27,339 bases of DNA from the NCBI GenBank assembly GCA_043777915.1, contig JAYWHB010000357.1, positions 1 to 27,339 of the forward strand. The letters run 5' to 3'. The position numbers and the translations under genes are program-made. Of the stretch, positions 218 to 27,339 are shown one piece after another. The DNA comes from Deinococcales bacterium. GTDB lineage: Bacteria; Deinococcota; Deinococci; Deinococcales; JAAFIG01. Position 1 is the stretch's first letter; each line of letters begins with the position of its first letter. The notes beneath the pieces are model-generated. The model had not been told where the DNA came from and ran no database searches. It was given only the letters and a program-made list of their open reading frames with translations.

Positions 218-604
218 GTGACCGAATTGAGCATTCAGCAGACTGCCAAAAAAACGGGATTAAGTACCGATACCCTACGTTACTATGAACGCATTGGCTT
301 ATTGCGTCCAAACAGAGATGCCTCGAGTCGGCATCGGCGCTACACGCAAACTGACCTCGCATGGATTCAGTTCTTAAATCATTTGCGTTCAACTGGAATG
401 CCGTTGTCCGAGATACGAGACTACTTAGCGCTATTTCTCCAAGGCGATCAAACCCTAGCCATGCGTTTAACCATGCTTGAAGCCCACGCAAAGCAAGTCG
501 AGCAACAAATTGCTGATTTGCAAGCCAACTTAGTTGCTATTCGGCATAAAATTGCCCATAGCAAAGAGTGTACTACCAAGCCCACCACAGAGACAGAGTC
601 TTAA
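218..604 (+). CDS. MerR-family transcriptional regulator (AdhR/NmlR-like)
   Basis: N-terminal MerR HTH 'IQQTAKKTGLSTDTLRYYERIGLL...HRRY', coiled-coil dimerisation helix; GTG start just downstream of the -10. Confidence 0.93.
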   Translation: MTELSIQQTAKKTGLSTDTLRYYERIGLLRPNRDASSRHRRYTQTDLAWIQFLNHLRSTGMPLSEIRDYLALFLQGDQTLAMRLTMLEAHAKQVEQQIADLQANLVAIRHKIAHSKECTTKPTTETES

Positions 605-614
605 AAGGAGTTTT

Positions 615-1571
615 ATGTCAATCACATCTTCATTTGGTTATCGTTCAACCGCCCTCGAGGTGATTGCAGGTCACGATCTACAGGGTCAAACTGCATTGGT
701 GACTGGGGCAAGCTCTGGTCTTGGCATTGAAACTTGCCGAGCCTTATTGCAAGCAGGCGCAGAAGTGGTTATGGCAGTGCGTGACCCTGAAAAGGGTGAA
801 TTAGTGGCTGCACAATTGCGCCAAGACACCAACAACCCCAAGGCTTATGTCATCGAACTGGATTTGGCTTCTTTGGCTTTGGTGCGTGCTGCTGCCAAAC
901 AAATTCTTGGAAGATGGTCGAAGATCAATCTACTGATCAATAATGCTGGTGTGATGGCAACGCCATTTTCGCACACCACAGATGGATTTGAAATGCAGTT
1001 TGGTACAAACCACCTTGGGCATTACTTATTTTCTAGGTTGTTACAACCAGCTTTACTTGCCGCCGCGCCAGCGCGAGTGGTTATGGTCAGTTCGCTTGCT
1101 CACCAACGTTCAGATGTTCATTTTGAAGATTTGAACTACCAACAGCGCGTTTATGAAAAATGGCAAGCCTACGGACAGTCCAAGACAGCCAATGTCTTAT
1201 TTGCAGTGGCATGGAATCAGCTTTACAGTTCGGAAGGCATCACCGCCAATGCCTTACATCCGGGCGGGATTTCCACGGGTTTGCAAAAGTTCTTGCCAAT
1301 TGAAGAACAACTTGCTATGGGCTGGATTGACGAACAAGGTGTAGTCAACCCTTTATTTAAGACCACCCAGCAAGGTGCAGCCACCACAATTTGGGCAGCC
1401 GTTGCTCCAGAACTGAGTGGTATTGGCGGCTTGTATCTCGAGGATTGCCGTGAAGCGCTGCCTTTCGACCCTACCCAACCGTACTCAGGTTTTATGCCCT
1501 ATATTCGAGACCTCGCCAATGCTGAACGCTTATGGCAGATTTCAGCCGAATTGGTGGGATTGACCAGCTAA
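615..1571 (+). CDS. Short-chain dehydrogenase/reductase (retinol dehydrogenase/WWOX-like SDR)
   Basis: TGASSGLG Rossmann motif, NNAG, catalytic YGQSK. True start is likely ATG 615 after the RBS AAGGAG; the track start at 534 overlaps merR. Confidence 0.93.
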   Translation: MSITSSFGYRSTALEVIAGHDLQGQTALVTGASSGLGIETCRALLQAGAEVVMAVRDPEKGELVAAQLRQDTNNPKAYVIELDLASLALVRAAAKQILGRWSKINLLINNAGVMATPFSHTTDGFEMQFGTNHLGHYLFSRLLQPALLAAAPARVVMVSSLAHQRSDVHFEDLNYQQRVYEKWQAYGQSKTANVLFAVAWNQLYSSEGITANALHPGGISTGLQKFLPIEEQLAMGWIDEQGVVNPLFKTTQQGAATTIWAAVAPELSGIGGLYLEDCREALPFDPTQPYSGFMPYIRDLANAERLWQISAELVGLTS

Positions 1572-5387: not shown

Positions 5388-8081
5388 ATGCAAGTTTCAA
5401 AACCGCTTTCTTCTGACCGTGATGCTTTACAAACAATCATGGCATTGTGTTCAACAGTTTTTATACCCGATGGTGTGGCGCTTTATGTGGTGGCTGGAAC
5501 TTCGATGCAGCGTGTGCTGGCAGAAGGTCTGGCTTTAGAGGTTGCCACCAGTTTTGATAAAGGTGTGGATGTTCCCGGACGGGTCTGGGCAAGTGCTGAA
5601 CCTTTGGTGGTACAACAATACCTGCATTGGTCAGAACGCACGATTCAACAAGCTGTTTCGGTGGTGGCGGCTGTGCCAGTGGTTTTAGAAAATACCGTGG
5701 CAGGGGTTTTGATGCTGATGTACCGCCAAGCGGTGCAACTGACCCCAGCCCAAGTGGTTCAACTCGAGCGTTTATCGGTGTTGGTGGCTTCGACCTTAGA
5801 AAACGGTTTTTTGCGCCAGCAATCTAAAAAGCAAACCCAAGCTCGAGCCGAGGATAAAGCCGCCCTATCCGAATTCGACCAGCGCCTACAACTCTTTGAA
5901 TCGGCGGTGCTGAACGCCGATGAGAGTGTTTTAATCAGTGAAATCGCTGTCCCAGACGATGGTAACGAACAGAATTCAAAAATTATCTTTGTCAATGCGG
6001 CTTTTTCTAATCTGATGGGCTTTTCGCCCCAAGAATCGCTTGGGCAGACGGCTGGTTTACTACGAGGGGCTTATGGTGATACCGATTTGTACCACCGTGC
6101 CAAAGCCGATTTGCGACTTGGCAAATCGGTTGATTTAGAAACGATTGAATATAAAAAAGATGGCACACCGCTTTGGGTGCAGCTTTCGATAGTGCCGATT
6201 CGCAACGAACTAGGGGTGATTACCAATCGTGTTTCGTGGCGGCGCGATATTACCGAACGCAAAAGCAACGAACTTCTGGAGGCATACCGCAATCGGGTTC
6301 TCGAGTTGGCGCTGCGTGGTGCGCCCCTCAACGAAACGCTGCAAACTTTAACGGGCTTACTCGAGAAGATTTTTGCAGGGTCAACGGCGGGTGTTTTTAT
6401 GCGTAAAGCCGAGCGTTTGGTTTTACAAGTCGCTCCCAATTGGCGACCACTGGTGCGTTCGCTGCTGGATGGTGTACCAATTGGTTTAGGGCATGGGACG
6501 GCTTCTTATGCGATTCTGGAGGCTGTGCCAGCCGTGGTTGAAGCGATTCAAGACGATCCGCGTTGGATCAATATGGATAGGGCAATGCTGATGAGTGGGG
6601 TGGCGAGTTCTTGGGCAGTCCCGATTTCTTCAGCAGACGGCGCGGTGATTGGGGCGCTTGAACTGCATTTTTCACGCAGCAGTGCGCCAACCCCCAGTCA
6701 ACTCGAGCATTTTGAAAATGTGGCACGTTTAGCCACCTTGGTGATTGAACGCAGCACCCTAATTGACCGCTTAGATGACCAAGCCAGTACCGATACCCTG
6801 ACCAAATTACCGAATCGTTACGGGGTCGAGCGTCACCTTGAGGGTGCCTTAAAAGTGGCGTTGCAACGCGGTTGGAAATTGGCGGTGCTGCAAATAGATT
6901 TAGATGGTTTTCGGCGAATCAACGACACCCTTGGACATGAGGTCGGCGATGAGGTGCTGCGAACCGTGACCGACCGTTGGCGTACCATTTTGCCGTCTCG
7001 GGATATGTTGGCGCGTCCGGGCGGCGACGAGTTTACTTTGGTGGTCCATCATTTAGAACAGGTTTCGGAAGCCGAAGCCCTAGCCAAAGAAATGCTTAAA
7101 GCCTTGTCTTATCCGCTTTCGATTCGGGGGGTGGAACTTTTTTTATCCGCCAGTATTGGAGCAGCCATTTACCCGGACGACGGCACAAGTGCCACAATTT
7201 TGCTGCGAAATGCCGACACCGCCATGAATGGGGTCAAACGCAGTGGTAAAAGTAATTTTAGACGTTTTGACCCTGCCATGAATAGCCTTGCCAAAGAACG
7301 CTTAAACACCGAAGTGTCTTTACGCCGTGCGCTTGAACGCAACGAATTTGTGGTGCGCTATCAGCCGCAAGTCAATGCTGCTCAACAAGTGATTGTGGTT
7401 GAGGCACTGCTTTACTGGCAGCATCCGCAAGAAGGTTTGGTTGCGCCGGGGCGGTTTTTACCAGTGGCGCTCGAGTCTGGTTTGATTGTGCCAATGGGTG
7501 AATGGATTTTACGCAAAGCCTGCCAAGAAGTCGGTCAATGGCGACGCGACGGCTTAAATGTGGCTTTGGCAGTCAACATAGATGTGCAGCAGTTAATGCG
7601 GGCAGATTTTTCGGATACGGTTTCTCGAGTCCTGCGAGAAACCAATTTTGACCCAAAAGCGCTTGAACTAGAAGTCACCGAAAGTGCTTTGATGAACGAT
7701 ACCGCCCTCGCTGCCGAGCGTTTGCAGCGTTTACAAGCCCAAGGGATTCAAACCGCCATAGATGACTTTGGCACGGGTTACTCGAGCCTAGCGTATTTAC
7801 AAAAACTGCCAGTTAATTCCTTAAAAATAGACCGCAGTTTTGTTTCGCATCTCGAGCCGGGTGATTCGGGTTGGTCTTTGGTCAAACTCATTGTTTTATT
7901 GGCGCGGCATGTTGGGATGAGCGTCGTGGCAGAAGGTGTGGAGACAAGAGCGCAATTTTTGGCGTTGCGTGATTTAGCGGTGGATCGTTCACAAGGCTAT
8001 TATTTTTCTAAACCTGTAGCAGCCATGGATTTATTGGGGCGCTTAAAAGCCCCGCGTAGCGCAACATCTTCGGTTGGCTGA
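5388..8081 (+). CDS. GAF-PAS-GAF-GGDEF-EAL diguanylate cyclase/phosphodiesterase
   Basis: GAF ('GVDVPGRVWASAEPLVV'), PAS/PAC ('IIFVNAAF...YKKDGTPLWV...RDITERK'), second GAF, 'DTLTKLPNR', GGDEF, EAL, 'DDFGTGYSSL', 'EGVET'. Confidence 0.95.
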   Translation: MQVSKPLSSDRDALQTIMALCSTVFIPDGVALYVVAGTSMQRVLAEGLALEVATSFDKGVDVPGRVWASAEPLVVQQYLHWSERTIQQAVSVVAAVPVVLENTVAGVLMLMYRQAVQLTPAQVVQLERLSVLVASTLENGFLRQQSKKQTQARAEDKAALSEFDQRLQLFESAVLNADESVLISEIAVPDDGNEQNSKIIFVNAAFSNLMGFSPQESLGQTAGLLRGAYGDTDLYHRAKADLRLGKSVDLETIEYKKDGTPLWVQLSIVPIRNELGVITNRVSWRRDITERKSNELLEAYRNRVLELALRGAPLNETLQTLTGLLEKIFAGSTAGVFMRKAERLVLQVAPNWRPLVRSLLDGVPIGLGHGTASYAILEAVPAVVEAIQDDPRWINMDRAMLMSGVASSWAVPISSADGAVIGALELHFSRSSAPTPSQLEHFENVARLATLVIERSTLIDRLDDQASTDTLTKLPNRYGVERHLEGALKVALQRGWKLAVLQIDLDGFRRINDTLGHEVGDEVLRTVTDRWRTILPSRDMLARPGGDEFTLVVHHLEQVSEAEALAKEMLKALSYPLSIRGVELFLSASIGAAIYPDDGTSATILLRNADTAMNGVKRSGKSNFRRFDPAMNSLAKERLNTEVSLRRALERNEFVVRYQPQVNAAQQVIVVEALLYWQHPQEGLVAPGRFLPVALESGLIVPMGEWILRKACQEVGQWRRDGLNVALAVNIDVQQLMRADFSDTVSRVLRETNFDPKALELEVTESALMNDTALAAERLQRLQAQGIQTAIDDFGTGYSSLAYLQKLPVNSLKIDRSFVSHLEPGDSGWSLVKLIVLLARHVGMSVVAEGVETRAQFLALRDLAVDRSQGYYFSKPVAAMDLLGRLKAPRSATSSVG

Positions 8082-9525: not shown

Positions 9526-9553
9526 CAAAGCTCATAGCCCATAGCTCATAGCC
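9526..9553. repeat. Heptamer tandem repeat CA(A/T)AGC(T/C) x4
   Basis: CAAAGCT CATAGCC CATAGCT CATAGCC between gdhA and gdhB. Confidence 0.7.
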
Positions 9554-9570
9554 CTCCACAGGAGACAAAA

Positions 9571-11047: not shown

Positions 11048-12715
11048 TTACTTTTTTCCAAGATTAGAGAGATCGAGAATGCCGCAACCCATGCCTTGAG
11101 GTTTTGGATTCCAAGAACGGCAACCACCGTAGGTTTGTGCAGTATCCAATGGTTTTAACAGCCATGACGCATCCTTCTTATTCGCTTTTGCAATTGCTAA
11201 GGCTGCTGTCACAAGTGGAGTGGCATAAGAAGTACCTTCTAAATTCATTGACGTGAGCTTAAATTCTCCAAGGGCAGCAATGTCAACAAAGTCTCCTCGA
11301 CTACTAAAACTGGAAGGAATACCTAGTTGGTTTACAGAACCAACTCCAATAACACGGTCGGTTTTTGCAGGGAATTGCTGGTAAACGCCACAATGACCCG
11401 AATTATTCACTTTGCAATTGCTTTGACCATTCATATCATAGAGCTTTTCTTGCCTATTTCCAGCCGATGCCACATAATTAACACTTTTGAGTTTTTCAGT
11501 AATCAGATATTTCATAATCTTTGAATCTGTGTCACCCCCAAAGCTCATATTGATGGTTTCTGCCCCAACATCTGCCGCGTGGCAAACGCCCTGTATGACA
11601 GCCTCAAGCGGGCAAGTACCATCTTTGCAAACCTTAACAGGAGTAATATGTGTAGTGCCAATAGTATTTTTTGTATCAGCAATGATTTGCCTGATAATTT
11701 CTGCAACTAAAGTCCCATGTAAAGACTTTCCATTGTCTAGATAGCCTATTTCAATGAAAGACTTGGGGCTTGAGAAGGGAAAACTTGTATTATTGAAACC
11801 ACTATCTAAAATTCCAATGTGTTGATTGTTCGCATAAAAATTCGGAGGTAAGTTGATTATATTCTTGAGATTATATCCTGTTTGAAAAACCTTTACTGCC
11901 AACTCGAGATTGCCATTTGGCTGTCCATATGATGGTACTGGGTCTAAATAACGAACCAAGTAATTATCTCGTATTGATTTTTTTGATCCAGGTACGATGT
12001 AGTTTGTAAAGGCTTCATCTAGTTTCTGTCGGGCTTCACCTGGACTTGTGTTCAGTTCGTAAATTGAAATATACCCATTACAAATTTTGGCAAGTTTAAT
12101 TCCATATAGAGAAATTTTAGAGGTGAGAGAGATTTCTTGGGAGTTTTTGTACCCTTTGCCCATGAAATAAGTGTTAATCCAGCCAGCTACATTATCTGGC
12201 AACTGATTTTCATGAAAAATCATGATTTGGCTTCTTTGCCAAATATAGTCATTACTTGTATTCAATTTTTCATCACCATTATTCGGGTCATAAAAACAAT
12301 TTCTTGTAATTACTGCGCCACTAGATGGATTTCGGCAAGTTGTGCTGTAACCTAGAATCTCGAGTTCATCTTCACCTACGTCTGTAACTTTGAATTTCTG
12401 GGTTCCACCCAATAGATTTTTGGGAATTTGAAAGCAAATATAATTTGCAAATCTTGATCGTCTATTACTCGCCATATTAAGCCTTTGACAATCTGTTTTC
12501 ATTGCAGGATTAACCTTAATCCAACCACCCGATCTATCTAAAAAAAATATATCCGTATTCGCTGTTGAGGAATTTAGTTCTATCATGACTAATTCGTTTT
12601 GGGCTGCTGGGTTTGGATAAAACTCCAGACTGCTTCCAGAACTTTGCGTTGCACCACCTTGAAGGTTAAACGAAACGAATAAAAGGGCTAACACCAATGG
12701 AAAGAATATTTTCAT
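11048..12715 (-). CDS. Secreted S8 (subtilase) family serine peptidase with long N-terminal region
   Basis: Signal-like MKIFFPLVLALLFVS; triad ILDSG / HGTLV / GTSYATP; oxyanion SAGN. ATG 12715 follows a GAGGTG RBS. Confidence 0.88.
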   Translation of the reverse strand: MKIFFPLVLALLFVSFNLQGGATQSSGSSLEFYPNPAAQNELVMIELNSSTANTDIFFLDRSGGWIKVNPAMKTDCQRLNMASNRRSRFANYICFQIPKNLLGGTQKFKVTDVGEDELEILGYSTTCRNPSSGAVITRNCFYDPNNGDEKLNTSNDYIWQRSQIMIFHENQLPDNVAGWINTYFMGKGYKNSQEISLTSKISLYGIKLAKICNGYISIYELNTSPGEARQKLDEAFTNYIVPGSKKSIRDNYLVRYLDPVPSYGQPNGNLELAVKVFQTGYNLKNIINLPPNFYANNQHIGILDSGFNNTSFPFSSPKSFIEIGYLDNGKSLHGTLVAEIIRQIIADTKNTIGTTHITPVKVCKDGTCPLEAVIQGVCHAADVGAETINMSFGGDTDSKIMKYLITEKLKSVNYVASAGNRQEKLYDMNGQSNCKVNNSGHCGVYQQFPAKTDRVIGVGSVNQLGIPSSFSSRGDFVDIAALGEFKLTSMNLEGTSYATPLVTAALAIAKANKKDASWLLKPLDTAQTYGGCRSWNPKPQGMGCGILDLSNLGKK

Positions 12716-12769
12716 AAGCACCTCTTGCAACATATTTTGAAAGCCTTGACAAAAATCTACGGTAAAAAA

Positions 12770-15766
12770 TTAAAATTCCAGATTAACCCCCAAGGCTTGC
12801 TGTATAAAATCTAATCGCTCGAGAATGGTTTTCTCCAAGGTAACGTCCCCGAATTTTTCAGCCGTAACTCGAGCTTCTAATAATTGCTTTTGTGCGGCAT
12901 TTAAGTTGTTCTCTAAAAGGAAAATCTCTCCCTGAACATATTTTGCATACAAACCAACAGGAGTATTTTCACGTTGATTTTGACCAAGGTCATCCCAGAC
13001 AAGGTTCATTTGTGCTTTTGCTTGTTCTACTTTATTGGTTTTGTACAGCGCTTCGGCAAGGTTAAGCCGCAATTCGGCTTTGATATTCTGCTGGTGCTGT
13101 TCTCGTACTGCAATGGCTTGTTGGTAACTCTGTAAAGATTCGTTAAAATTTCCCTGCAAGAAAAGAATTGCTCCACGATTCTCAAAACAATCAGCCAGTC
13201 GAACGGAGTTGGTTTGCACGTAGTAGGATTCTGCTTTTTTGATGTGTTCGAGTGCTTGGGTGTATCTACCACATTGCCACTCGAGTGTAGATAGGTTGTT
13301 ATGGACTCCTGCAACGCTTAACCCGTCTAGCAATTTATCTTGAATTTCTAAAGCCTGCAACCAAACACTTTTGGCTTGGTCAAAATTTCGTCTCATGGCG
13401 CAAACCACGGCAATACAGTTCAGTAACACTGCAATATTACTTTGGTTTCCAAGCCGTTGCCAAATATCTAAAGATTCTGTATAGAGAAGTTGAGCTTGCT
13501 CGAGGTCGCCTTGGTTTTGTTTGACCAAACCAACAATGGTGACTGCATCTGCTCGAATTGATTCGGCACTCTTGTTTCGGAGTCCACGAATACGAACAAT
13601 GGCTGTTTGTGCATAGTGTTCGGCTTGGGTGTAGTTATTTTTTTCGCGGATGTACAATTTTGCGCGTATAGCAGCATCGTAGGCGTGTAGAACTGCATCT
13701 TCAATACTTCCTAATAGTAAGTCGGCTTGCTCAAGTCTATTGAATGCTTCGTTGTGTTTGCTCATTTTAGCGTACCAGTCAGCTTGTTTCAAAATTACTT
13801 GTAGACGTTCTTTATCGTCTTGGCTGGTTTCTATCTGATGCTCAAACCAAATTGCAGCATTGTCCAAATCACCGTGCAAGCTGTATCTGTCGGCTAACCC
13901 CTGAAATGCTCGATGCGCTTGAATTCTATCCCTTGGTGTCCAAACATGCCGTGCATCCCAATAATGCTGCGCTGCCACGCTTGGCATTTTCAAGGCTCGA
14001 GCCGCCCGCAAGTGCAACATGGCTTTACGCGCCATTCCCATATCCTCGAGCAGCACCGCACGGGTCAGGTCGTGGTTTAGGTGCATTCCGTGTTGGTCAT
14101 CGCCTAATAAGCCTTTGTATCCTAGCTGCTCGGTGCTTTCAATCAGTTCTTGTGGGCTGCGGGCAGTGACTAATTGCAGCGTGTATAAATCGTGCTTGCC
14201 GCCCAATACAGCTAATCCCTCGAGGGTTTGTTTTTCTAAACTGTCTAAGCGTTGTAAGCGTAAACGAATCAGATTCGAGACTTGCGAAGCGTTTGAATTC
14301 TGGCTTCGCAGTAACTCGAGGGCGTAAAGCGGATTACCTCCACTCATGTGCCTTAGTGTTTGGCTGTCCCAAGTTGTGTTTTTTTGGTGCGTAATCAAGA
14401 GGGCTAAATCGGTTTGTGAAAGTGGTTCAAGCCTGATGATTTCTGCCAGGCAAATCTCGAGCAGACTTTGCCAATTGGCTTGGCTATTTTCGGTATGACG
14501 AAGCGTAGCAATGAGGTGCAGTGGATGAGGTGTGCTGTGTTGTAATAACTGACCAAGTTGTAAAATGGTGGTGCTGTCTGCCCATTGTAGGTCGTCTAGG
14601 GCTAAAATTGTGGGTTGATGACTTACAAGTAATACTTCACACAGGGCTTTGTGCAAATCAAAATGTTCGTTTGTATTGACGGCTTGGTTTGACTGCTCGA
14701 GTAACAAGGACTCGATGGCTTTTCTCGAGGGGGCTGATAATTTTTCCAGCTTATTTGGTTCTAATGCCAAGGCTTGACGTACAAAAACAGCTAAAATTTC
14801 GGCAATTGGGGTTTCTGGCGTAGCTTTGCTGTGCAGAACTCGAGTTGCTTGGCTGTGCTTTAAAATTTCTTGCATTAAACGGCTTTTGCCAGCCCCCGGT
14901 TCGCCTTGTAAAATCAGCATTTTGGCATTGCCTGAATCCTCGAGCCTCAAAAAATTTAGGCTTTGTTTTAAGTTGTCTTGCCTACCAACAAAAGGCACTT
15001 GGCTAACCACAACCAGCGCTCGAGGTTGTACCAAGCCCATTTCTTGACGCAGGGTATTCTCGCAAGTGGTTTTAGAGCCAGACCTGACCAACTCAAAGAC
15101 TTTTTTGGTTTGTGAAGTGGGTTCTACACCTAGAGCAGCGTGTAAGGATTTGCTGAATCTGGTATAAAACCCCACGGCTTTATCGGTTTCACCACGTACA
15201 CCTTGAACCAAAAGCAACAAACGCAATGCTTCTTCTCGAGGTTCGGTTTCATCGCCAGCCGCCAGTTCCAAGAGTGGTAAAGCCGCTTCAAATTGCCCAT
15301 TTTTGATGGTCAGACGCGCCAAATCAAACGCCAGTTCAGACTGTTCGGTGATGAACAACTGACGTTTCTGCTCGAGCCATTCTTCAAACTCTAAACCCAG
15401 ACCACGTTTCCATTCTCTGAAACGCACCCCACTTAAAAATTCGCCTTTGTACAAAGCGAATCTTTTTTCAAGGTCGGTTTCGGTTTGCCAATCGAGAACA
15501 TCAACACGTATTGTTGTCCCCAATTCTAGGGTTTCGAGTTCTGAAATCAGGGCTTCTTCGCCAAGCTCGAGAACAATATGCGCCCGCATCACCGATAAGT
15601 TATTTAAGGGGTCAGAAGAATCTCCCCAGAACAAGCCCGCCAGGTGTCGCCGTTCGGTGCGTCCCTCGAGTGCCAAATATGCCAGCAACGCAAAGGCTTT
15701 GGCATAGAGCTTTTTGGGTTGCCCTTGAAACTGAATTTTGGGTGAACCAAGCAAACTCAAATACAT
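12770..15766 (-). CDS. SARP/BTAD-AAA(STAND-like)-TPR transcriptional regulator
   Basis: N-terminal 'LSLLGSP...LLAYLAL...LAGLFW' wHTH; BTAD 'EPREEALRLLL...LGVEP'; 'FVGR', Walker A GEPGAGKS, Walker B 'LALDDLQWAD', 'GGNPLYALEL'; C-terminal TPR repeats. Confidence 0.9.
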   Translation of the reverse strand: MYLSLLGSPKIQFQGQPKKLYAKAFALLAYLALEGRTERRHLAGLFWGDSSDPLNNLSVMRAHIVLELGEEALISELETLELGTTIRVDVLDWQTETDLEKRFALYKGEFLSGVRFREWKRGLGLEFEEWLEQKRQLFITEQSELAFDLARLTIKNGQFEAALPLLELAAGDETEPREEALRLLLLVQGVRGETDKAVGFYTRFSKSLHAALGVEPTSQTKKVFELVRSGSKTTCENTLRQEMGLVQPRALVVVSQVPFVGRQDNLKQSLNFLRLEDSGNAKMLILQGEPGAGKSRLMQEILKHSQATRVLHSKATPETPIAEILAVFVRQALALEPNKLEKLSAPSRKAIESLLLEQSNQAVNTNEHFDLHKALCEVLLVSHQPTILALDDLQWADSTTILQLGQLLQHSTPHPLHLIATLRHTENSQANWQSLLEICLAEIIRLEPLSQTDLALLITHQKNTTWDSQTLRHMSGGNPLYALELLRSQNSNASQVSNLIRLRLQRLDSLEKQTLEGLAVLGGKHDLYTLQLVTARSPQELIESTEQLGYKGLLGDDQHGMHLNHDLTRAVLLEDMGMARKAMLHLRAARALKMPSVAAQHYWDARHVWTPRDRIQAHRAFQGLADRYSLHGDLDNAAIWFEHQIETSQDDKERLQVILKQADWYAKMSKHNEAFNRLEQADLLLGSIEDAVLHAYDAAIRAKLYIREKNNYTQAEHYAQTAIVRIRGLRNKSAESIRADAVTIVGLVKQNQGDLEQAQLLYTESLDIWQRLGNQSNIAVLLNCIAVVCAMRRNFDQAKSVWLQALEIQDKLLDGLSVAGVHNNLSTLEWQCGRYTQALEHIKKAESYYVQTNSVRLADCFENRGAILFLQGNFNESLQSYQQAIAVREQHQQNIKAELRLNLAEALYKTNKVEQAKAQMNLVWDDLGQNQRENTPVGLYAKYVQGEIFLLENNLNAAQKQLLEARVTAEKFGDVTLEKTILERLDFIQQALGVNLEF

Positions 15767-15828
15767 TACTCCGCCTTATTTGAACTTCTCTAGGAATACA
15801 AGATTTGGAGTTGAAAAAGCAAGACCCG

Positions 15829-15850
15829 AATTTAAGCCCAATTTAAGCCC
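15829..15850 (+). promoter_or_regulatory. Perfect 11-bp tandem direct repeat (AATTTAAGCCC)x2, candidate SARP operator
   Basis: Located in the divergent intergenic region 40 nt upstream of the 15891 start; the 11-bp period matches SARP wHTH binding geometry. Confidence 0.65.
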
Positions 15851-15890
15851 CCATGATTTACCTTTTGTTTTAACAAAAAGGAGGTAGAAA

Positions 15891-16211
15891 ATGCAGGTCA
15901 GCAGCAGAAGTTTATTGGAGCAAAAATTGCATCAGAGCCGCGCTTTATCCTTAGCCGACCTCGAGAAAATAACAGCCCTTGCCGATAAACAGGGGGTCAA
16001 TTTTGTACGACTTACACCCAAAGGCGCAGTTGTAGACGATGTGCTAACAGGCGTAAGCGGCACGATACACACCACCCGAGAAGCCATTTTAGGGGTTGTG
16101 CAGACCTTTCTCGAGTTATCCGAAAGTCAAGTACGACTTGAAATAAGCCGTTTGGGGTTAGAGGCAACCGCCGTATTTGAAATCCACTTTTCGACACCTG
16201 AAGTCGGGTAG
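15891..16211 (+). CDS. Small hypothetical protein (106 aa), first gene of the divergent operon
   Basis: Strong RBS AGGAGG (15879-15884), ATG start, protein-like alpha/beta composition. Confidence 0.75.
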   Translation: MQVSSRSLLEQKLHQSRALSLADLEKITALADKQGVNFVRLTPKGAVVDDVLTGVSGTIHTTREAILGVVQTFLELSESQVRLEISRLGLEATAVFEIHFSTPEVG

Positions 16212-16288
16212 TAAGTGTTTGCAAGCATCCCAGCCGCCCTCTCACCTCGAGAACCACGCCCTCGAGAGAAAACCAAGGAGCAACACCC

Positions 16289-17005
16289 ATGAGCAAAAAA
16301 TGGAAAGTCACCGATGAATCTATTATTTTCACAGACCGCCTCGCCGCTAAACTCCAAGCCCATTACAAACGCATCGAACAAACCGAAACCGTGCGCTTAA
16401 TCGAAGCTGACGGCACACCACCGGGTCTGGTTGCCAAAATCGTCAAATACATCCTGCTCGAGGTTTTTAGTTACGGACCGCACGTAACAGAAGCGACCTT
16501 TACTGCCATTGGACGCTTACCAAAATCCCGTCCCGACCTGATGAAACCCATGATTATCCATGACCTTTCCGAAGTTGACCACGGCGAAATGGCACTCGAG
16601 GACTTCATTAAACTTGGTGGGAACGAACAATGGGCGCGAACCCGTCAAATCACCCCCGCCAGTTTTGTGATGAGCGCCACTGTCCGCATGATTGGCGAGC
16701 GCGAAAGCCCATTTGCTTACCTTGGGTATATGTACCTTTTTGAATGCCTAACCCCAGTGCTGACCGAACGCGCCCAGGTTGCCCTAGCCAAAAAAGGCTT
16801 CCCCAGCAACGCCCAACGTTTTATAGATGTTCATGCCAAAGAAGACATAGCCCATGCCGATGAACTCGCAAGGCTGATTCAAAAAGTTGTGACGGATTAC
16901 CCCGAAGAAGAAAGCGCGATTGAATTTGGATTCGATTGCTTCGCGGCAGTCTACCCACTGCCAATTTGGGAAGCCGCCCTAAGTCACGCCAAAGCCGAGA
17001 AGTAA
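16289..17005 (+). CDS. Heme-oxygenase-like diiron oxidase (iron-containing redox enzyme; TenA/PqqC/CADD fold)
   Basis: Helical protein with putative iron ligands E-x-x-H ('SEVDHG'), 'YLFE' and H-x-x-E-D-x-x-H ('HAKEDIAH'); RBS AAGGAG. Confidence 0.8.
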   Translation: MSKKWKVTDESIIFTDRLAAKLQAHYKRIEQTETVRLIEADGTPPGLVAKIVKYILLEVFSYGPHVTEATFTAIGRLPKSRPDLMKPMIIHDLSEVDHGEMALEDFIKLGGNEQWARTRQITPASFVMSATVRMIGERESPFAYLGYMYLFECLTPVLTERAQVALAKKGFPSNAQRFIDVHAKEDIAHADELARLIQKVVTDYPEEESAIEFGFDCFAAVYPLPIWEAALSHAKAEK

Positions 17006-17017
17006 GGAGAGTGTGCC

Positions 17018-17794
17018 ATGTCTCGAGATACCGGTATTTTTAAGGACAATCACTTTTTACTCTTAGCGCCAGCCAATGCGCGAATCCCAAGCGTATTTTC
17101 TCGAGTTGAAGAAAACAAAGATGTACACGAGGCATGGCTGACCAAGCTCCAGCAGTTGCGTGGCAAGGTTTTTTTAGAAGATGGGGCAATTAAAGAAAGT
17201 CATTTAGACGAACAAGGTAGGCACATTTCAAAACATGATGTTCTTTCATGGCATTACTTGGCATTAAGTCCCGAAGAGCAATTGCGTGGTGTAATGCGTT
17301 GCCAAGTTTGGTACACCAGTGAACGTTTGCCTGAGCTTTGTGACCTCAATTTATACGTTCTGCTCGAGCGAATGCAGAATCTCGAGTTGCGCCAAAAATT
17401 CACAACTGCCTTAACTACCTTTATTCACCAGCCCAATGAACAGGCTTGTTTTGTAGAAATATCCGCCTTAGCAGTGGATAAAGCCAGCCAAGGATTCACC
17501 ATTGGTTCAATGCTAGGGGTTTCTGCATACTCGCTTGCCAACATCATAGATGCTTATGCGGGAGTCGGAGCAGGTACAGACCGACACCACACAGCACGGT
17601 TTTACCACAAGCTCGGAGGAATCAGTTTCAGAGACCCAAGTAACCCAGAAGAAATCTTGCCACCGTTTTTTGATACTGGTTACGACTGCCAAATGGACAT
17701 CATGGGATTTATAGACCCAGCCCCTTCAGTTAATGAAATGGTCAGAATTGTAGAAGAAAAACTTTGTGCAGCACAGGTTTATGTCAATCGGTAA
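17018..17794 (+). CDS. GNAT-fold acyltransferase, LuxI/FeeM (N-acyl amino acid synthase)-like
   Basis: 'QLRGKVF...D...D..SWH' LuxI-like N-terminus, 'FVEISALAVDKASQG' acyl-binding strand, 'ARFYHKLG'; RBS AAGGAG 12 nt after the HDO stop. Confidence 0.6.
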   Translation: MSRDTGIFKDNHFLLLAPANARIPSVFSRVEENKDVHEAWLTKLQQLRGKVFLEDGAIKESHLDEQGRHISKHDVLSWHYLALSPEEQLRGVMRCQVWYTSERLPELCDLNLYVLLERMQNLELRQKFTTALTTFIHQPNEQACFVEISALAVDKASQGFTIGSMLGVSAYSLANIIDAYAGVGAGTDRHHTARFYHKLGGISFRDPSNPEEILPPFFDTGYDCQMDIMGFIDPAPSVNEMVRIVEEKLCAAQVYVNR

Positions 17795-22831: not shown

Positions 22832-23080
22832 CGCATGTTAATTTGTCCCTTCATCACTCGAGCCTTCGCGCCTCTGCTCGAGCCAGCCGCCACTTCGAGC
22901 CTAGATTTTCAGGTTTGTTTTTGGTGCGCTTATTCGCCAGTCGCAAATCCAGTGTGTGGGCGTTTGTATGGTGGGTGAAATGCCAGCACAATCCATTTTC
23001 TTCCCTAATTTGTTGTTAAATGAAGGTTTCAATAGTTTTTCATATGGCTTCTCAGGGAAAACGCTTTACAATGCCTGTTG

Positions 23081-26000
23081 ATGCGTCGTTGGTTTGCCAT
23101 TATTGCTGGGATAGTTGTGTTGTTGGGACTGGTGGTCTTTTTGGCTGCGGGTTCACAACCAGCCTTGCGTTTTGCCTTGGCGCAAGCTAAGGCGGCTGGC
23201 TTTGAAATTGATGCCAAGACGCTGCGTGGCAATTTGTTCTTGGGTGTCGAAGCCGTGGATGCCACCGTCAAAAGTGCTTTTATTAACGGCTCTGGGGCTT
23301 CGGTCAAAGCAAAATACAACCTTCTAACATTACTGCAAAAAAAAGAGCTTCGGCTCGAGGCAGCCGTTTCTGGTGGGCGATTAAGTTTTGACCCTGCTGG
23401 CTTGCCACCAGTGCCAGAGGGCGGCGAACCACCACCAATTCATGTTTTCTTGGATTCGGCTGCTTTGTCAGACACGGTTCTCGAGTTTGTTGGCAAGAAC
23501 ATTTTTGTGCCAGACGCGAAGGTCACACTACTCAGCCAAAGTGCGCTGCCAAGTCAGAACGGCAAGACCAGAGGCAATGTGCGGGTCAAGCTCGAGTCCA
23601 AAGACGGTGGCGGCTTTGCCACCGCCTTGTATGAATTTGGCAAGGATTTTGAGCCAAATCTGGTGATTGATACCGAACTCGATGCCTCAGTTGCCAATTA
23701 CTGGTTAAAACCGATTCCAATGGATATTCAGGGCGGCAAGTTGCGTGGCACGGTGCGGGTCACGGCAACCAGTGTGTCGGCAGAGGCGGTTCTCGAGAAT
23801 GGGGCGGTTGAAGTATTGCCCAATCTTGTGGCTTCTAACATCGCTGGTCAGGCTTCGTTTGATACAAACGGCTTGGTCAAAGCCAAATTAACAGGGCAAG
23901 GTTTGGGCGGTAGTCTACAAGCCGATTTTGAACTAGATACCAAGCCTAAACAGGAGTATTGGAAAATTAACGGGAAGCTAGTTCCGCGTTTGGAGCAAAT
24001 CATGAAAACCTTTGCCAATAGCACACCCGGTAAGGGCGCACTCGAGGTGACAGTTTCGGGTGGCGGTTGGCAGAAACTCAAACTTAACGGCACGGTCAAA
24101 GGTTTAGAAACCCTTGAAGCGGCAGGTTTTCCAGTGCAGAATTTGCGTGGCACTTGGCAATTTACTGACCATCTCGAGGCGAGCGCATCGGCAGTCACAA
24201 AAATTGGAATGGATAGCTTAAATGCTGTGGCAGACATCAAAAGTGTTGGTGAAAAAATTGTTATTACCCCAGAATTAACGGGGAATTTTTTGAATGCGCC
24301 GCTCGAGCTAAGTGGGTTAGTAGAAGTGCTGGGCGAAAAAATTGAGATTAACGCAGGTGGCGCAATTTTACGTGGTGATATTGGCGCTAACGTTGACTTA
24401 CAAGGCGAAAAGATTTCTGGGACTGGTAAATTTGGCAGTGTCCAGTTACCACTTCCTAAACCAGTTGTTTCGAGTGTCAACGGCACAGCCAAACTTTCTG
24501 GAACAGTAAATAATTTATTGATTGCAGGTTTTTTGAATCCAGCCAGTCTCGAGATTCCAGCAATTGACTTAAACAACATTTCGGGAGCATATAAACTACG
24601 TTTTAATGGCAAAGCATTGACCGCCGAAGCCAACCTTGCTGACGGTGCAATCGTAGCAAATGGGGCAATTATCAATACCGATGGTACGCCCGCTCGAGGC
24701 AGTGTTTTTGTGCGCGGGCTGCGTTTTGAACCCGGTGGTCAAGCCGATTACAACGCCCAGTATGTACTGAACGGGGCGGGGATTGCTTTAGCAGGGGTGG
24801 CTCGAGGCTACAATCTAAAGTTTGGAGAAGTCAAACTCGATGACCTTACTGGGGTGCTGAGCGTGGCTGTGGGACAAGAAATTCGTGGACGCTGGAATGC
24901 GAGTAAATTACTGGCAACCTTCACCGATAAATCGCTCAATCTGCGCCCTCGAGACTGGCGGGTTCGGGCGGCTGGCGAAACTGCTTTTGTGGGCGGCGAC
25001 ATGACTTTGACCTATGACCAATTAAAAACCAGTGGGAAACTGACTGGCAAAACGCGCTTTGGCACAATCACGGCACTTGGGCAAGGTTCACAAATTGGTT
25101 TGTCGGGCAGGGCAGGTTTTAATGGGCTTCAAGCGGCGCTCAGTGGGGCGTTGCAACTCGAGCCGTTTAATTTGCGTTTGGCGGCAGTGCCACAAAATAA
25201 ATCTCTTGGTGGAAAAATTCTGCTTGAGGCTGACCAAGACTTTCGAGTCAGTGGCAACTTAGAGAGCAATGGGCAGGATTTACAAATTGGTTTTACGAAG
25301 ACTGGTTTAAGCGCCAAGGGCAAACTGGATTTAAGTGCTTTAGTGCCAGTATTCCCAGTTGGTACAAGGGATTTACTAAAAGGCATTGCCGATATAAATA
25401 TTTCCGACTCGAGTGGTACTGGCTTGGTGCGTGGGGTGGTGGCTCGAATTCCGATTGAAGCCCAACTTCGCTCCAACAATCTGCAAATTTCTACCGAGGC
25501 TCGAGTGACAGGTGGGCAATTTGCGGGGGCAACCGTGTCTGGGGCAGTTTTTCCCAGTGTCAATGCTCGAGTGAATTACGCGGGGCTGTCGGCTCGAGTG
25601 CGTGGTTCGTATGACAATCTTGGAATTAACGGCAGTGGTTCGTTGCCAGCTTCGTTATTGTCTGGAACTGGATTATCCTTAGCCAGTAATCAATTTGCTG
25701 TAACTGGACGTTTTCAAAATAATGTACTCACTGCCTCGGGGAAAGTTGGGGCGTTACAAATTCGCAATGCCAAACTCGAGAATGGGGTGCTTGGCGCAGA
25801 TTTTAGCGGGGATTTAGTGGGGACTTACCAAGCAGAACCTTTGCGTTTACAAGGTCTGAACGGCACAATTGAACAACGCGACTCGAGACTGGAAGTTCGT
25901 GCCACGGCAAAAAGCGCTTTGGGGGTATTCAGGGGGAGTCCTATTTCGGCTGGAGGAGTAACAGCGAATTTTAGTCAGCAGAACAATAAAAATATCATTC

Positions 26001-27339
26001 GGTTTACTGCCTCGAGTGCCACGGGGACTTTTTCGGGGATCAAAACCCAAGTCAGCAATGCCAGTGGGGTGCTGAATCTAACCGGTAATGCCCTAGATTT
26101 AGAAGCCAAAGCCAGTCGTGCCACGGCGCAGACATCGGCGGGTCTGGTGATGGCTTTGGGTCTAAGTGCCACAAGCCAAGGCGTGGTGGAACGCTTACCG
26201 ATTCGTTTTAAGGCAGCCAAACTCGAGGCGACTGGTTTTGAGGCGAACGCCCTGTTAAATCAAGTCAATGGCACGGTCACAATCGCACAAAGCCAGAGTT
26301 TTACCGCCAATTTTGAATCTGGCAGTGTGCAACACCCAGAAGCGAACGCCACCATTGGGGCTGGGCAGATTTCTGGGAATTTACGTGGTCAAAGTCTCGA
26401 GACTCGTTTTTCACTGCCCGTGTTAAATGCCACGGCTCGAGGAGAAAATGCCAAAATCAGTGCCAAAGGAAGTTTAGGACTGAACTTGGAGCAACCAACC
26501 AAGAACTGGCGTGGCAATCTCGAGGCAACTGCACTTGGGCGCGACTGGCGTTTAGGTGCATCTGGGAATTGGCAGAATTTGAATGTCACGGGTTATGTTC
26601 CGACCCGTCTCTCGAGTTTAGCTGGGGTGGAATTACCAAAGTATTTACAAACCAACGTGGCGATAAACGGCACACTTGGTTTACCGAGTCTGCAATACAA
26701 TCTAGGACTGATTGCCAAACTTCCAGCCTTGCAGTTAAACGCCAGCCTCAAGGGACAAAACACGGTTTTTCAAGCTCGGCTCGAGGCAAAGGATACGGCA
26801 AAGGGTAAAGGCACACTTGTTTATGCTTCTAGTGGTTTGGCTTCGGCAGATTTTAGCAACTTGGATATAACCGCTCTCAGTCAAGTCCAAGGCACAATTT
26901 CAGGGCAGCTTGCACTGGACAAAAAATCTTTGCGGGGCAACTTAAACGGCAATTTGGCAGGGTTTCCGATTTCAGCAACTTGGCTCGAGAATGATGCTTT
27001 TAGCGGCGAAATTGGTGGGGCATTACCCGTTCAAATAAAGTCTGGTAAATGGCTTTTTCCACTCGAGGCGATTATTGAACTTGAAACCCAAGCCTCCGAA
27101 CTGCCGATTCGTGGCAAGGCTTCACTAAACCTCTCAAGCCTTCGCGGGCAGGGGCAACTCGAGTTACTGGCATACAAACAAAGTCTTGGCAATGGCGAAC
27201 TGATTTTGAAGCCGCAAGTCATGCCTTTTCAAGTGGCGCTACAAGATGGTTTGCGTTTTCGGCTCGAGAACCCTGCTGGGGCATTGCGTTTTGCGGCTGA
27301 ATCTTGGAGTGGTCAGCTTAGTTTGGCGTACTCGGCTTT
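23081..27339 (+). CDS. Giant TamB/AsmA-like (translocation and assembly module) protein, partial, runs off the window
   Basis: Frame starting ATG 23081 (MRRWFAIIAGIVVLLGLVVFLAAG..., N-terminal membrane anchor) stays open at every point checked to the window end (>1,400 codons). Gly/Leu/Thr-rich beta-strand repeats. Absent from the track because it has no stop. Confidence 0.8.
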   Translation, partial: MRRWFAIIAGIVVLLGLVVFLAAGSQPALRFALAQAKAAGFEIDAKTLRGNLFLGVEAVDATVKSAFINGSGASVKAKYNLLTLLQKKELRLEAAVSGGRLSFDPAGLPPVPEGGEPPPIHVFLDSAALSDTVLEFVGKNIFVPDAKVTLLSQSALPSQNGKTRGNVRVKLESKDGGGFATALYEFGKDFEPNLVIDTELDASVANYWLKPIPMDIQGGKLRGTVRVTATSVSAEAVLENGAVEVLPNLVASNIAGQASFDTNGLVKAKLTGQGLGGSLQADFELDTKPKQEYWKINGKLVPRLEQIMKTFANSTPGKGALEVTVSGGGWQKLKLNGTVKGLETLEAAGFPVQNLRGTWQFTDHLEASASAVTKIGMDSLNAVADIKSVGEKIVITPELTGNFLNAPLELSGLVEVLGEKIEINAGGAILRGDIGANVDLQGEKISGTGKFGSVQLPLPKPVVSSVNGTAKLSGTVNNLLIAGFLNPASLEIPAIDLNNISGAYKLRFNGKALTAEANLADGAIVANGAIINTDGTPARGSVFVRGLRFEPGGQADYNAQYVLNGAGIALAGVARGYNLKFGEVKLDDLTGVLSVAVGQEIRGRWNASKLLATFTDKSLNLRPRDWRVRAAGETAFVGGDMTLTYDQLKTSGKLTGKTRFGTITALGQGSQIGLSGRAGFNGLQAALSGALQLEPFNLRLAAVPQNKSLGGKILLEADQDFRVSGNLESNGQDLQIGFTKTGLSAKGKLDLSALVPVFPVGTRDLLKGIADINISDSSGTGLVRGVVARIPIEAQLRSNNLQISTEARVTGGQFAGATVSGAVFPSVNARVNYAGLSARVRGSYDNLGINGSGSLPASLLSGTGLSLASNQFAVTGRFQNNVLTASGKVGALQIRNAKLENGVLGADFSGDLVGTYQAEPLRLQGLNGTIEQRDSRLEVRATAKSALGVFRGSPISAGGVTANFSQQNNKNIIRFTASSATGTFSGIKTQVSNASGVLNLTGNALDLEAKASRATAQTSAGLVMALGLSATSQGVVERLPIRFKAAKLEATGFEANALLNQVNGTVTIAQSQSFTANFESGSVQHPEANATIGAGQISGNLRGQSLETRFSLPVLNATARGENAKISAKGSLGLNLEQPTKNWRGNLEATALGRDWRLGASGNWQNLNVTGYVPTRLSSLAGVELPKYLQTNVAINGTLGLPSLQYNLGLIAKLPALQLNASLKGQNTVFQARLEAKDTAKGKGTLVYASSGLASADFSNLDITALSQVQGTISGQLALDKKSLRGNLNGNLAGFPISATWLENDAFSGEIGGALPVQIKSGKWLFPLEAIIELETQASELPIRGKASLNLSSLRGQGQLELLAYKQSLGNGELILKPQVMPFQVALQDGLRFRLENPAGALRFAAESWSGQLSLAYSA

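Follow-up and report, generated by a model that had tools for sequence, protein, structure and literature searches.

A tandem 11-bp repeat as the probable SARP-type activator site of a small-protein promoter divergent from an AfsR-like regulator gene

Introduction

An exact tandem repeat of 11 bp lies between two divergent genes in the window, by which we mean the whole stretch of 27,339 nucleotides analysed here, and it raises the question of whether an activator binds there and, if so, which protein reads the repeat and which of the neighbouring genes it serves. SARP-dependent promoters offer the obvious comparison, as they carry direct repeats spaced 11 or 22 bp apart with the 3' repeat 8 bp from the -10 (PMC10936776). 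The 22-bp afs box of AfsR occupies positions -40 to -19, over a poor -35, and the contacts of each AfsR protomer fall on the first 8 bp of its repeat, leaving the last 3 untouched (PMC10936776).

A 2024 review describes SARPs as confined exclusively to actinobacteria (PMC10972967). BTAD domains are nevertheless detectable in many phyla among our control genomes. The genome that contains the window has a G+C content of 47%, and the best solved relatives of the PrmA and GDH proteins encoded in the window include what we take to be Thermus thermophilus entries; the host is probably not an actinobacterium.

Results

The first-pass annotation of this DNA reported a perfect 11-bp direct repeat in a 124-nt intergenic gap, and this is borne out. 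The 11-mer AATTTAAGCCC stands twice in exact tandem (Table 1), with 22 of 22 positions identical at period 11 (TRF score 44), and the gap, taken from the start codon of the regulator gene (15766, minus strand) to the ATG of the gene for a 106-aa protein (15891, plus strand; hereafter small106), comprises positions 15767-15890 and is 124 nt long. Chance alone would give about 0.007 perfect 11-bp tandems per 27-kb window and about 2.5e-5 in a gap of 124 nt. A pattern search allowing at most one mismatch returned 5 matches against 0.8 expected, a number reached by none of the shuffles.

Two other origins for the sequence of the box were considered and set aside. An assembly artefact is ruled out by the agreement of contigs from two separate sequencing runs (X1 and X2), which cover the box with zero differences. 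The 11-mer occurs 19 times in the genome against about 2 expected, but it is not a dispersed element: the 17 copies outside the box are single and mostly coding (Phe-Lys-Pro codons), share no common context, and represent background. Just 5' of the box, at 15817-15828, the sequence AAGACCC is similar, apart from one additional base, to the AAGCCC with which the repeat ends, and may be a degenerate third repeat at a spacing of about 12 nt, although the match is weak; no such third repeat is present in the sister genomes G003 and G004.

A -10-like hexamer follows the box on the plus strand. No TAnnnT follows it on the minus strand, and the box thus points to small106. The plus-strand hexamer, TACCTT, is weak, and the reading could as well be shifted one base upstream to TTACCT. 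A consensus scan of the 124-nt gap yielded no sigma-70-like -35/-10 pair, and the hexamer 17 nt 5' of TACCTT is GCCCAA, which is not a -35. Three features that mark a SARP box can be read here: two exact 11-mers provide direct repeats at 11-bp spacing, where at least two at 11 or 22 bp are looked for; the distance to the predicted -10 is 8 nt, both here and in G003 and G004, where about 8 bp is usual; and the box replaces a poor -35, with GCCCAA at the -35 place. With the -10 placed as predicted, the geometry of the box agrees with that of published SARP-dependent promoters.

Table 1. Coordinates of the features of the locus; positions are those of the window, and amino acid (aa) positions are those of the regulator.
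Feature	Position	Strand	Basis and remarks
S8 subtilase, downstream of the regulator gene	11048..12733	-	Pfam; syntenic in G003 (tblastn)
998-aa AfsR-like large SARP	12770..15766	-	Pfam BTAD, AAA_16 and TPR_12; AlphaFold/Foldseek
Regulator, SARP domain	aa 1-245, nt 15032-15766	-	Fold model
Regulator, STAND NTPase	aa ~258-420	-	Pfam AAA_16
Regulator, TPR region	aa ~560-930	-	Pfam TPR_12
DRup, upstream direct repeat AATTTAAGCCC	15829..15839	+	Aligns in register with the first repeat of the boxes in G003 and G004
DRdown, downstream direct repeat AATTTAAGCCC	15840..15850	+	Identical to DRup; followed by 8 nt and then TACCTT
Predicted -10 hexamer TACCTT (TAnnnT)	15859..15864	+	8 nt 3' of DRdown; read from the sequence
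Predicted transcription start	15870..15872	+	Inferred from the -10 position; would place the box at about -42 to -21
Ribosome-binding site AAAAAGGAGG, strong Shine-Dalgarno	15875..15884	+	5' of the ATG at 15891
small106, 106-aa protein without Pfam match	15891..16211	+	First gene after the box; orthologues in G003 and G004
HDO (Haem_oxygenas_2)	16289..17005	+	Pfam; probably co-transcribed
258-aa protein, conserved HDO partner	17018..17794	+	Synteny in five sister genomes

The divergent gene was described in the first-pass annotation as a SARP-STAND-TPR regulator, and the domain evidence upholds this description, with the SARP domain recognised by fold and followed by a STAND NTPase and TPRs. 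Pfam identifies the BTA domain of a SARP (BTAD, aa 99-226, E 3.9e-8, above the curated cut-off) and the NOD/STAND plus TPR arrangement of a large SARP (AAA_16 at aa 258-417, E 7e-19, and TPR_12 in four stretches), and the P-loop GxxGxGKS is visible in an alignment with a paralogue. Pfam does not detect Trans_reg_C in aa 1-98, and the DNA-binding domain is thus assigned from the modelled fold. Ten family members went into an AlphaFold model of aa 1-270, whose pLDDT averages 87 and exceeds 90 over aa 1-110; the model, which contains strands, three helices and a hairpin, can be superposed on AfsR and EmbR. When the model was compared with the PDB by Foldseek, the sole strong matches were the SARP domains of AfsR (8k60, 8hvr) and EmbR (2fez, 2ff4), with E values of 1.5e-9 to 4e-7 and query-normalised TM scores of 0.52-0.65. 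The OmpR-type winged helix at the N-terminus is seen by fold only; a sequence profile matches AfsR and the DNA-binding domain of SaeR weakly, and when the complete regulator was searched against the PDB by sequence, TPR matches alone came back. A contig scan for relatives gave as its sole match a Gemmatimonadota protein of 23% identity. Given the Pfam matches to BTAD, AAA_16 and TPR together with the AfsR/EmbR fold of the modelled N-terminus, we count the protein as an AfsR-type large SARP.

On the other side of the gap, small106 has no family match in Pfam. No terminator-like site was found in the 77-nt gap between small106 and HDO, and HDO is probably co-transcribed with small106. A ParA-like gene and further genes lie 3' of the gene for the 258-aa protein, in a low-GC stretch.

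If the repeat is a regulatory site, 11-bp repeats should also stand upstream of homologous operons, a check suggested at the outset, and they are present at the same place. G003 has full synteny of the S8 protease gene, the regulator gene, the box, small106 and HDO, and G004 has the unit of regulator gene, box and small106 on a separate contig, without HDO. In each of the two genomes the small106 orthologue is divergent from the regulator gene with the box between them, and the two 11-bp repeats, about 40 nt 5' of the small gene, align in register with the box of the window (MAFFT). The first eight bases of the repeat are AACTTCAG in G003 and G004 and AATTTAAG in the window, identical at 6 of 8 positions; both half-sites show the same pair of substitutions, and the last three bases are free to vary. 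The second 11-mer is separated from the -10-like hexamer by exactly 8 nt in all three genomes (CATACT in G003 and G004, TACCTT in the window). When G003 is compared with G004, the box and the -10 region stand out as conserved islands, with differences in the spacer and in the upstream DNA.

The regulators vary alongside the boxes. Those of G003 and G004 are near-identical in their DNA-binding part and have a common box; that of the window is 41-45% identical to them, differs at several predicted recognition-helix positions, and has an altered box. The box is about 42 nt from the small106 start in G003, whereas the distance from box to regulator gene is 62 nt in the window and about 225 nt in G003. 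Because the box keeps its distance to small106 and not to the regulator gene, it appears to belong to the small106 promoter.

The relationship with HDO is different. Across five genomes of the genus this gene keeps 93-97% identity, but the DNA preceding it differs. In G002, G004 (contig C99), G005 and G007, HDO occurs without the small gene and is preceded by a different 11-bp tandem, of the TGATTACGGTT type, followed by 7 nt and then TAnnnT. The proposal that the repeat ties the locus into one system is consequently to be narrowed: it can stand for at most small106, HDO and the 258-aa gene, in the window genome and in G003, and the evidence does not extend it to genes beyond these. It is small106, not HDO, that is conserved as the partner of the regulator and the box, and on this comparative evidence the conserved target is predicted to be small106, with the HDO link specific to a lineage.

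Comparison of positions 11048-17794 of the window with the corresponding locus of G003 (L030) reveals uneven divergence, with identities of 93% for HDO, 57% for the 258-aa protein, 51% for small106, 41% for the regulator and 30% for the S8 protease. Either the regulator cassette evolves fast, or it may have been replaced by a homologous cassette.

Three more near-identical boxes, of the AGTTTACGCCC/AATTTACGCCC type, in which ACG replaces AAG, came out of a genome-wide pattern search. They are located at C385:7384-7405, C571:5363-5384 and C451:2759-2780, the first two being exact to the degenerate pattern and the third having one mismatch; the AAG version was found in the window only. The ACG box is identical to the window box at 19 of 22 positions and has a C-to-A difference at position 7 of both repeats. 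In C385 the box is situated in the divergent gap beside the gene for a 1004-aa paralogue, a protein with an NB-ARC-type NTPase and TPRs whose SARP domain is 28% identical to that of the window regulator, and it is followed by 7 nt and then TAAGGT. A C385-type regulator (83-88% identical) and the box are conserved as a pair in at least three other genomes of the genus (G002, G003 and G005), and conservation extends to a second target of the ACG box, a 135-aa gene. The AGTTTACGCCC/AATTTACGCCC sites form a small regulon, in which the gene for the 1004-aa paralogue faces that for an RCC1-repeat protein and the box also occurs upstream of 135-aa/CHRD/beta-propeller genes; the loci of this regulon in the genus are L032, L033, L035, L039 and L040. 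With 3 of 22 positions differing between the two versions, cross-recognition is possible, and adjacency alone does not prove the binder. The closer paralogues in C633 and C651 have no 11-bp tandem of at least 9/11 identity within 450 nt upstream, so the adjacency of SARP-like genes and tandems is not universal.

The genome contains 23 BTAD-containing genes and at least 2 further paralogues, and the arrangement seen in the window recurs in it. Perfect tandems in non-coding DNA number 20 at period 11, as compared with 3, 1 and 0 at periods 10, 12 and 13. Non-coding period-11 tandems with no more than one mismatch number 44, and in 15 of them TAnnnT lies 7-8 nt past the repeat; 2000 samples of random non-coding positions averaged 2.7 such cases and never exceeded 9. 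The histogram of TAnnnT offsets after period-11 tandems peaks at 7-8 nt. A tandem is found no more than 400 nt away from 5 of the 25 SARP-like genes against 0.49 expected (about 10-fold), and 5 was reached in 0 of 5000 resamples. Relaxed scans 5' of SARP-like genes, in this genome and in sister genomes, recovered period 11 and no instances of periods 12 and 13; periods 9 and 10 were also absent upstream of SARP-like genes in the sister genomes, and period 9 was noisy in the genome of the window. Most of the 11-bp tandems in the genome do not adjoin a SARP-like gene. Taken together, the excess of period 11, the offset of TAnnnT and the proximity to SARP-like genes define a recurrent promoter type, two 11-bp repeats followed by 7-8 nt and a -10, with about 40 cases, that is statistically tied to SARP-like genes.

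Other repeat families were encountered in the course of these scans. Boxes of the form GNGACGCT-nnn-GNGACGCT occur at 13 sites with a 3-nt spacer, as compared with 1-3 sites for spacers of 1, 2, 4 or 5 nt, and TAnnnT follows 7-9 nt after 12 of the 13 (examples are C416:9172, C786:3701, C686:217, C265:1406 and C322:3565); this family looks like the regulon of one global activator of SARP or OmpR type. GTGACG-type repeats were also considered as plain -35 hexamers, a reading that was rejected since their spacing to the -10 would be about 9 or 20 nt. The DNA that separates a 964-aa gene from a SARP-like gene at C544:7040-7190 contains a perfect GTTACCTGTGC tandem and, after it, at least two further degenerate copies at intervals of about 20 bp, a multi-repeat array as opposed to a simple pair. 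Non-coding tandems of period 14 are enriched as well (16 perfect cases) and are probably arrays of 7-mers, such as AGCCCAT at 9529-9554.

Traces of a change of promoter are visible at HDO. The ancestral HDO promoter is absent from the window, where homology to the other promoter type begins only at 16238 (window positions 16238-16288). Elsewhere in the genome, C824 retains a SARP-like gene, a TGATTACGCTT/TGATTACGGTT box and approximately the first 60 nt of HDO (1166-1187, 1271-1331), the remainder of HDO and most of the 258-aa gene having been deleted; its -10 is mutated, TGAGTT in place of the TACAGT of the sister genomes. Considered together, C824 and the window look like the products of a swap of the HDO promoter from one SARP box to another. 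C560 carries a paralogue of HDO (37% identity) at 1386-2030, about 5 kb downstream of, and on the same strand as, a perfect TGTTTACGGTT tandem (7097-7120), and this TGTTTACGGTT box is one base off the box that heads HDO in the sister genomes.

Discussion

The reading that we favour, with a probability of about 0.65, is that the box is the SARP-type activator site of the small106 promoter, that the adjacent regulator is its most probable binder, and that transcription reads through into HDO and the 258-aa gene. Two SARP-domain protomers would sit side by side, one on each 11-bp repeat, and the box, at about -42 to -21, would stand in for the -35 element. The SARP dimer would recruit RNA polymerase to the weak -10, TACCTT, 8 nt downstream, and transcription starting at the small106 promoter would run on into HDO and the 258-aa gene. 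The most probable source of the protomers is the SARP domain of the divergent 998-aa AfsR-like regulator, because its adjacency is conserved and it co-varies with the box; its NTPase and TPR part presumably gates activation on some signal.

The identity of the binder is where an alternative carries the most weight. The box could be a true activator site and yet be bound by another winged-helix protein, either the C385 paralogue or one of about 15 response regulators of the OmpR/PhoB type, which we regard as unlikely. The window box resembles the ACG box of C385 at 19 of 22 positions despite SARP domains that are only 28% identical, the genome holds about 15 classic OmpR-type Trans_reg_C genes, of a type that binds similar repeats, and most tandems are not next to a SARP-like gene; moreover, the box of AfsR itself is also bound by the response regulator PhoP (PMC10972967). 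Proteins of the OmpR/PhoB family (PHO boxes, PhoP) act as winged-helix dimers on tandem repeats about one helical turn apart that overlap the -35, much as proposed here. Such proteins need a receiver domain and a partner kinase, however, and none is encoded on the window contig, where the adjacent protein has a BTA domain instead; there is no cognate response-regulator gene nearby, with 0 of the 18 Trans_reg_C matches falling on this contig (C357). As to the paralogue, the C-to-A change at position 7 of both repeats falls within the 8 bases contacted by AfsR. The regulator, box and small106 trio is kept as a unit in three genomes, with the box changing together with the regulator, and the adjacency of SARP-like genes to tandems is enriched about 10-fold.

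It is very improbable that the tandem is a neutral, recent duplication of 11 bp by slippage with no regulatory role. The 100% identity of the two copies and the restriction of the box sequence to this genome are what such an event would leave behind, but G003 and G004 have a two-repeat box in the same position with a conserved spacing to the -10, non-coding DNA shows a specific excess of period 11 that is coupled to TAnnnT at 7-8 nt, and the box is identical in two sequencing runs. Least probable of all is that the box is an operator for repression or autoregulation of the divergent regulator gene and not a site of plus-strand activation: it lies only 62 nt from the regulator start codon and the two promoters could overlap, but the G003 box holds its distance to small106 while being separated from the regulator gene by about 225 nt, a correctly spaced -10-like hexamer is present on the plus strand only, and the lack of a -35 is typical of activator-dependent promoters.

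Read as the activator site of small106, the box has its closest counterpart in the AfsR/afs box/afsS system of Streptomyces coelicolor (8k60, 8hvr; PMC10936776), in which the regulator is likewise a large SARP with a SARP domain, a NOD and TPRs. In both systems a 22-bp box of two 11-bp direct repeats replaces a poor -35 and is followed within a few bases by a weak -10, each repeat is conserved over its first 8 bases and free in its last 3, and the target is a gene for a small protein adjoining the regulator gene. The differences are also considerable: the window regulator is about 18% identical to AfsR, Trans_reg_C is undetected in it by Pfam, the sequence of its box is unrelated, and a link to a kinase is not known for it; the small gene, unlike afsS, is divergent from the regulator gene and is followed by enzyme genes. 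The small cluster-situated SARPs (ActII-ORF4, DnrI, RedD) similarly use repeats of 11-bp period near the -35, are encoded beside their target genes and have very few sites per genome, as does the window box, which is unique; they differ in having no NOD or TPR and often three heptamers, where we find two mutually identical full 11-mers. EmbR of Mycobacterium tuberculosis (2fez) shares the SARP-domain fold (query-normalised TM 0.65) and has a C-terminal FHA domain where the window regulator has its NTPase and TPRs.

A broader and more tentative proposal, possible but doubtful, is that the locus forms part of an extensive network that could be decoded, in which the 25 or more AfsR-like STAND regulators each read their own 22-bp, -35-replacing box, that new boxes arise by 11-bp tandem duplication, and that the cassette of S8 protease, regulator, box and small106 co-diversifies rapidly in the manner of pherotype signalling cassettes and captured HDO by promoter swap. 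Within the genus the cassette has diverged (regulator 41%, small protein 51%, protease 30% identity, both half-sites changed), and HDO remains at 93-97%.

Should the box be bound as predicted, the AfsR mechanism would extend beyond the actinobacteria. The natural specificity variants AATTTAAG, AACTTCAG and AGTTTACG, each with its own regulator, would provide a compact system for studying how recognition helices read DNA, and the box itself would be a handle with which to switch on uncharacterised small-protein and HDO genes of an uncultured organism, for example by means of the isolated SARP domain. The wider pattern is notable in its own right, with many regulators, many boxes, natural variants of specificity and an apparent swap of the HDO promoter.

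Two observations concern the window and the genome more generally. An open frame of more than 1420 aa, at 23078-27337, continues past the edge of the window, and Pfam gave no match to it at E <= 1e-5. The hexamer CTCGAG, seen all through the window, is extremely over-represented in the genome, being contained in all 25 of the commonest 9-mers, each of which occurs up to 2431 times.
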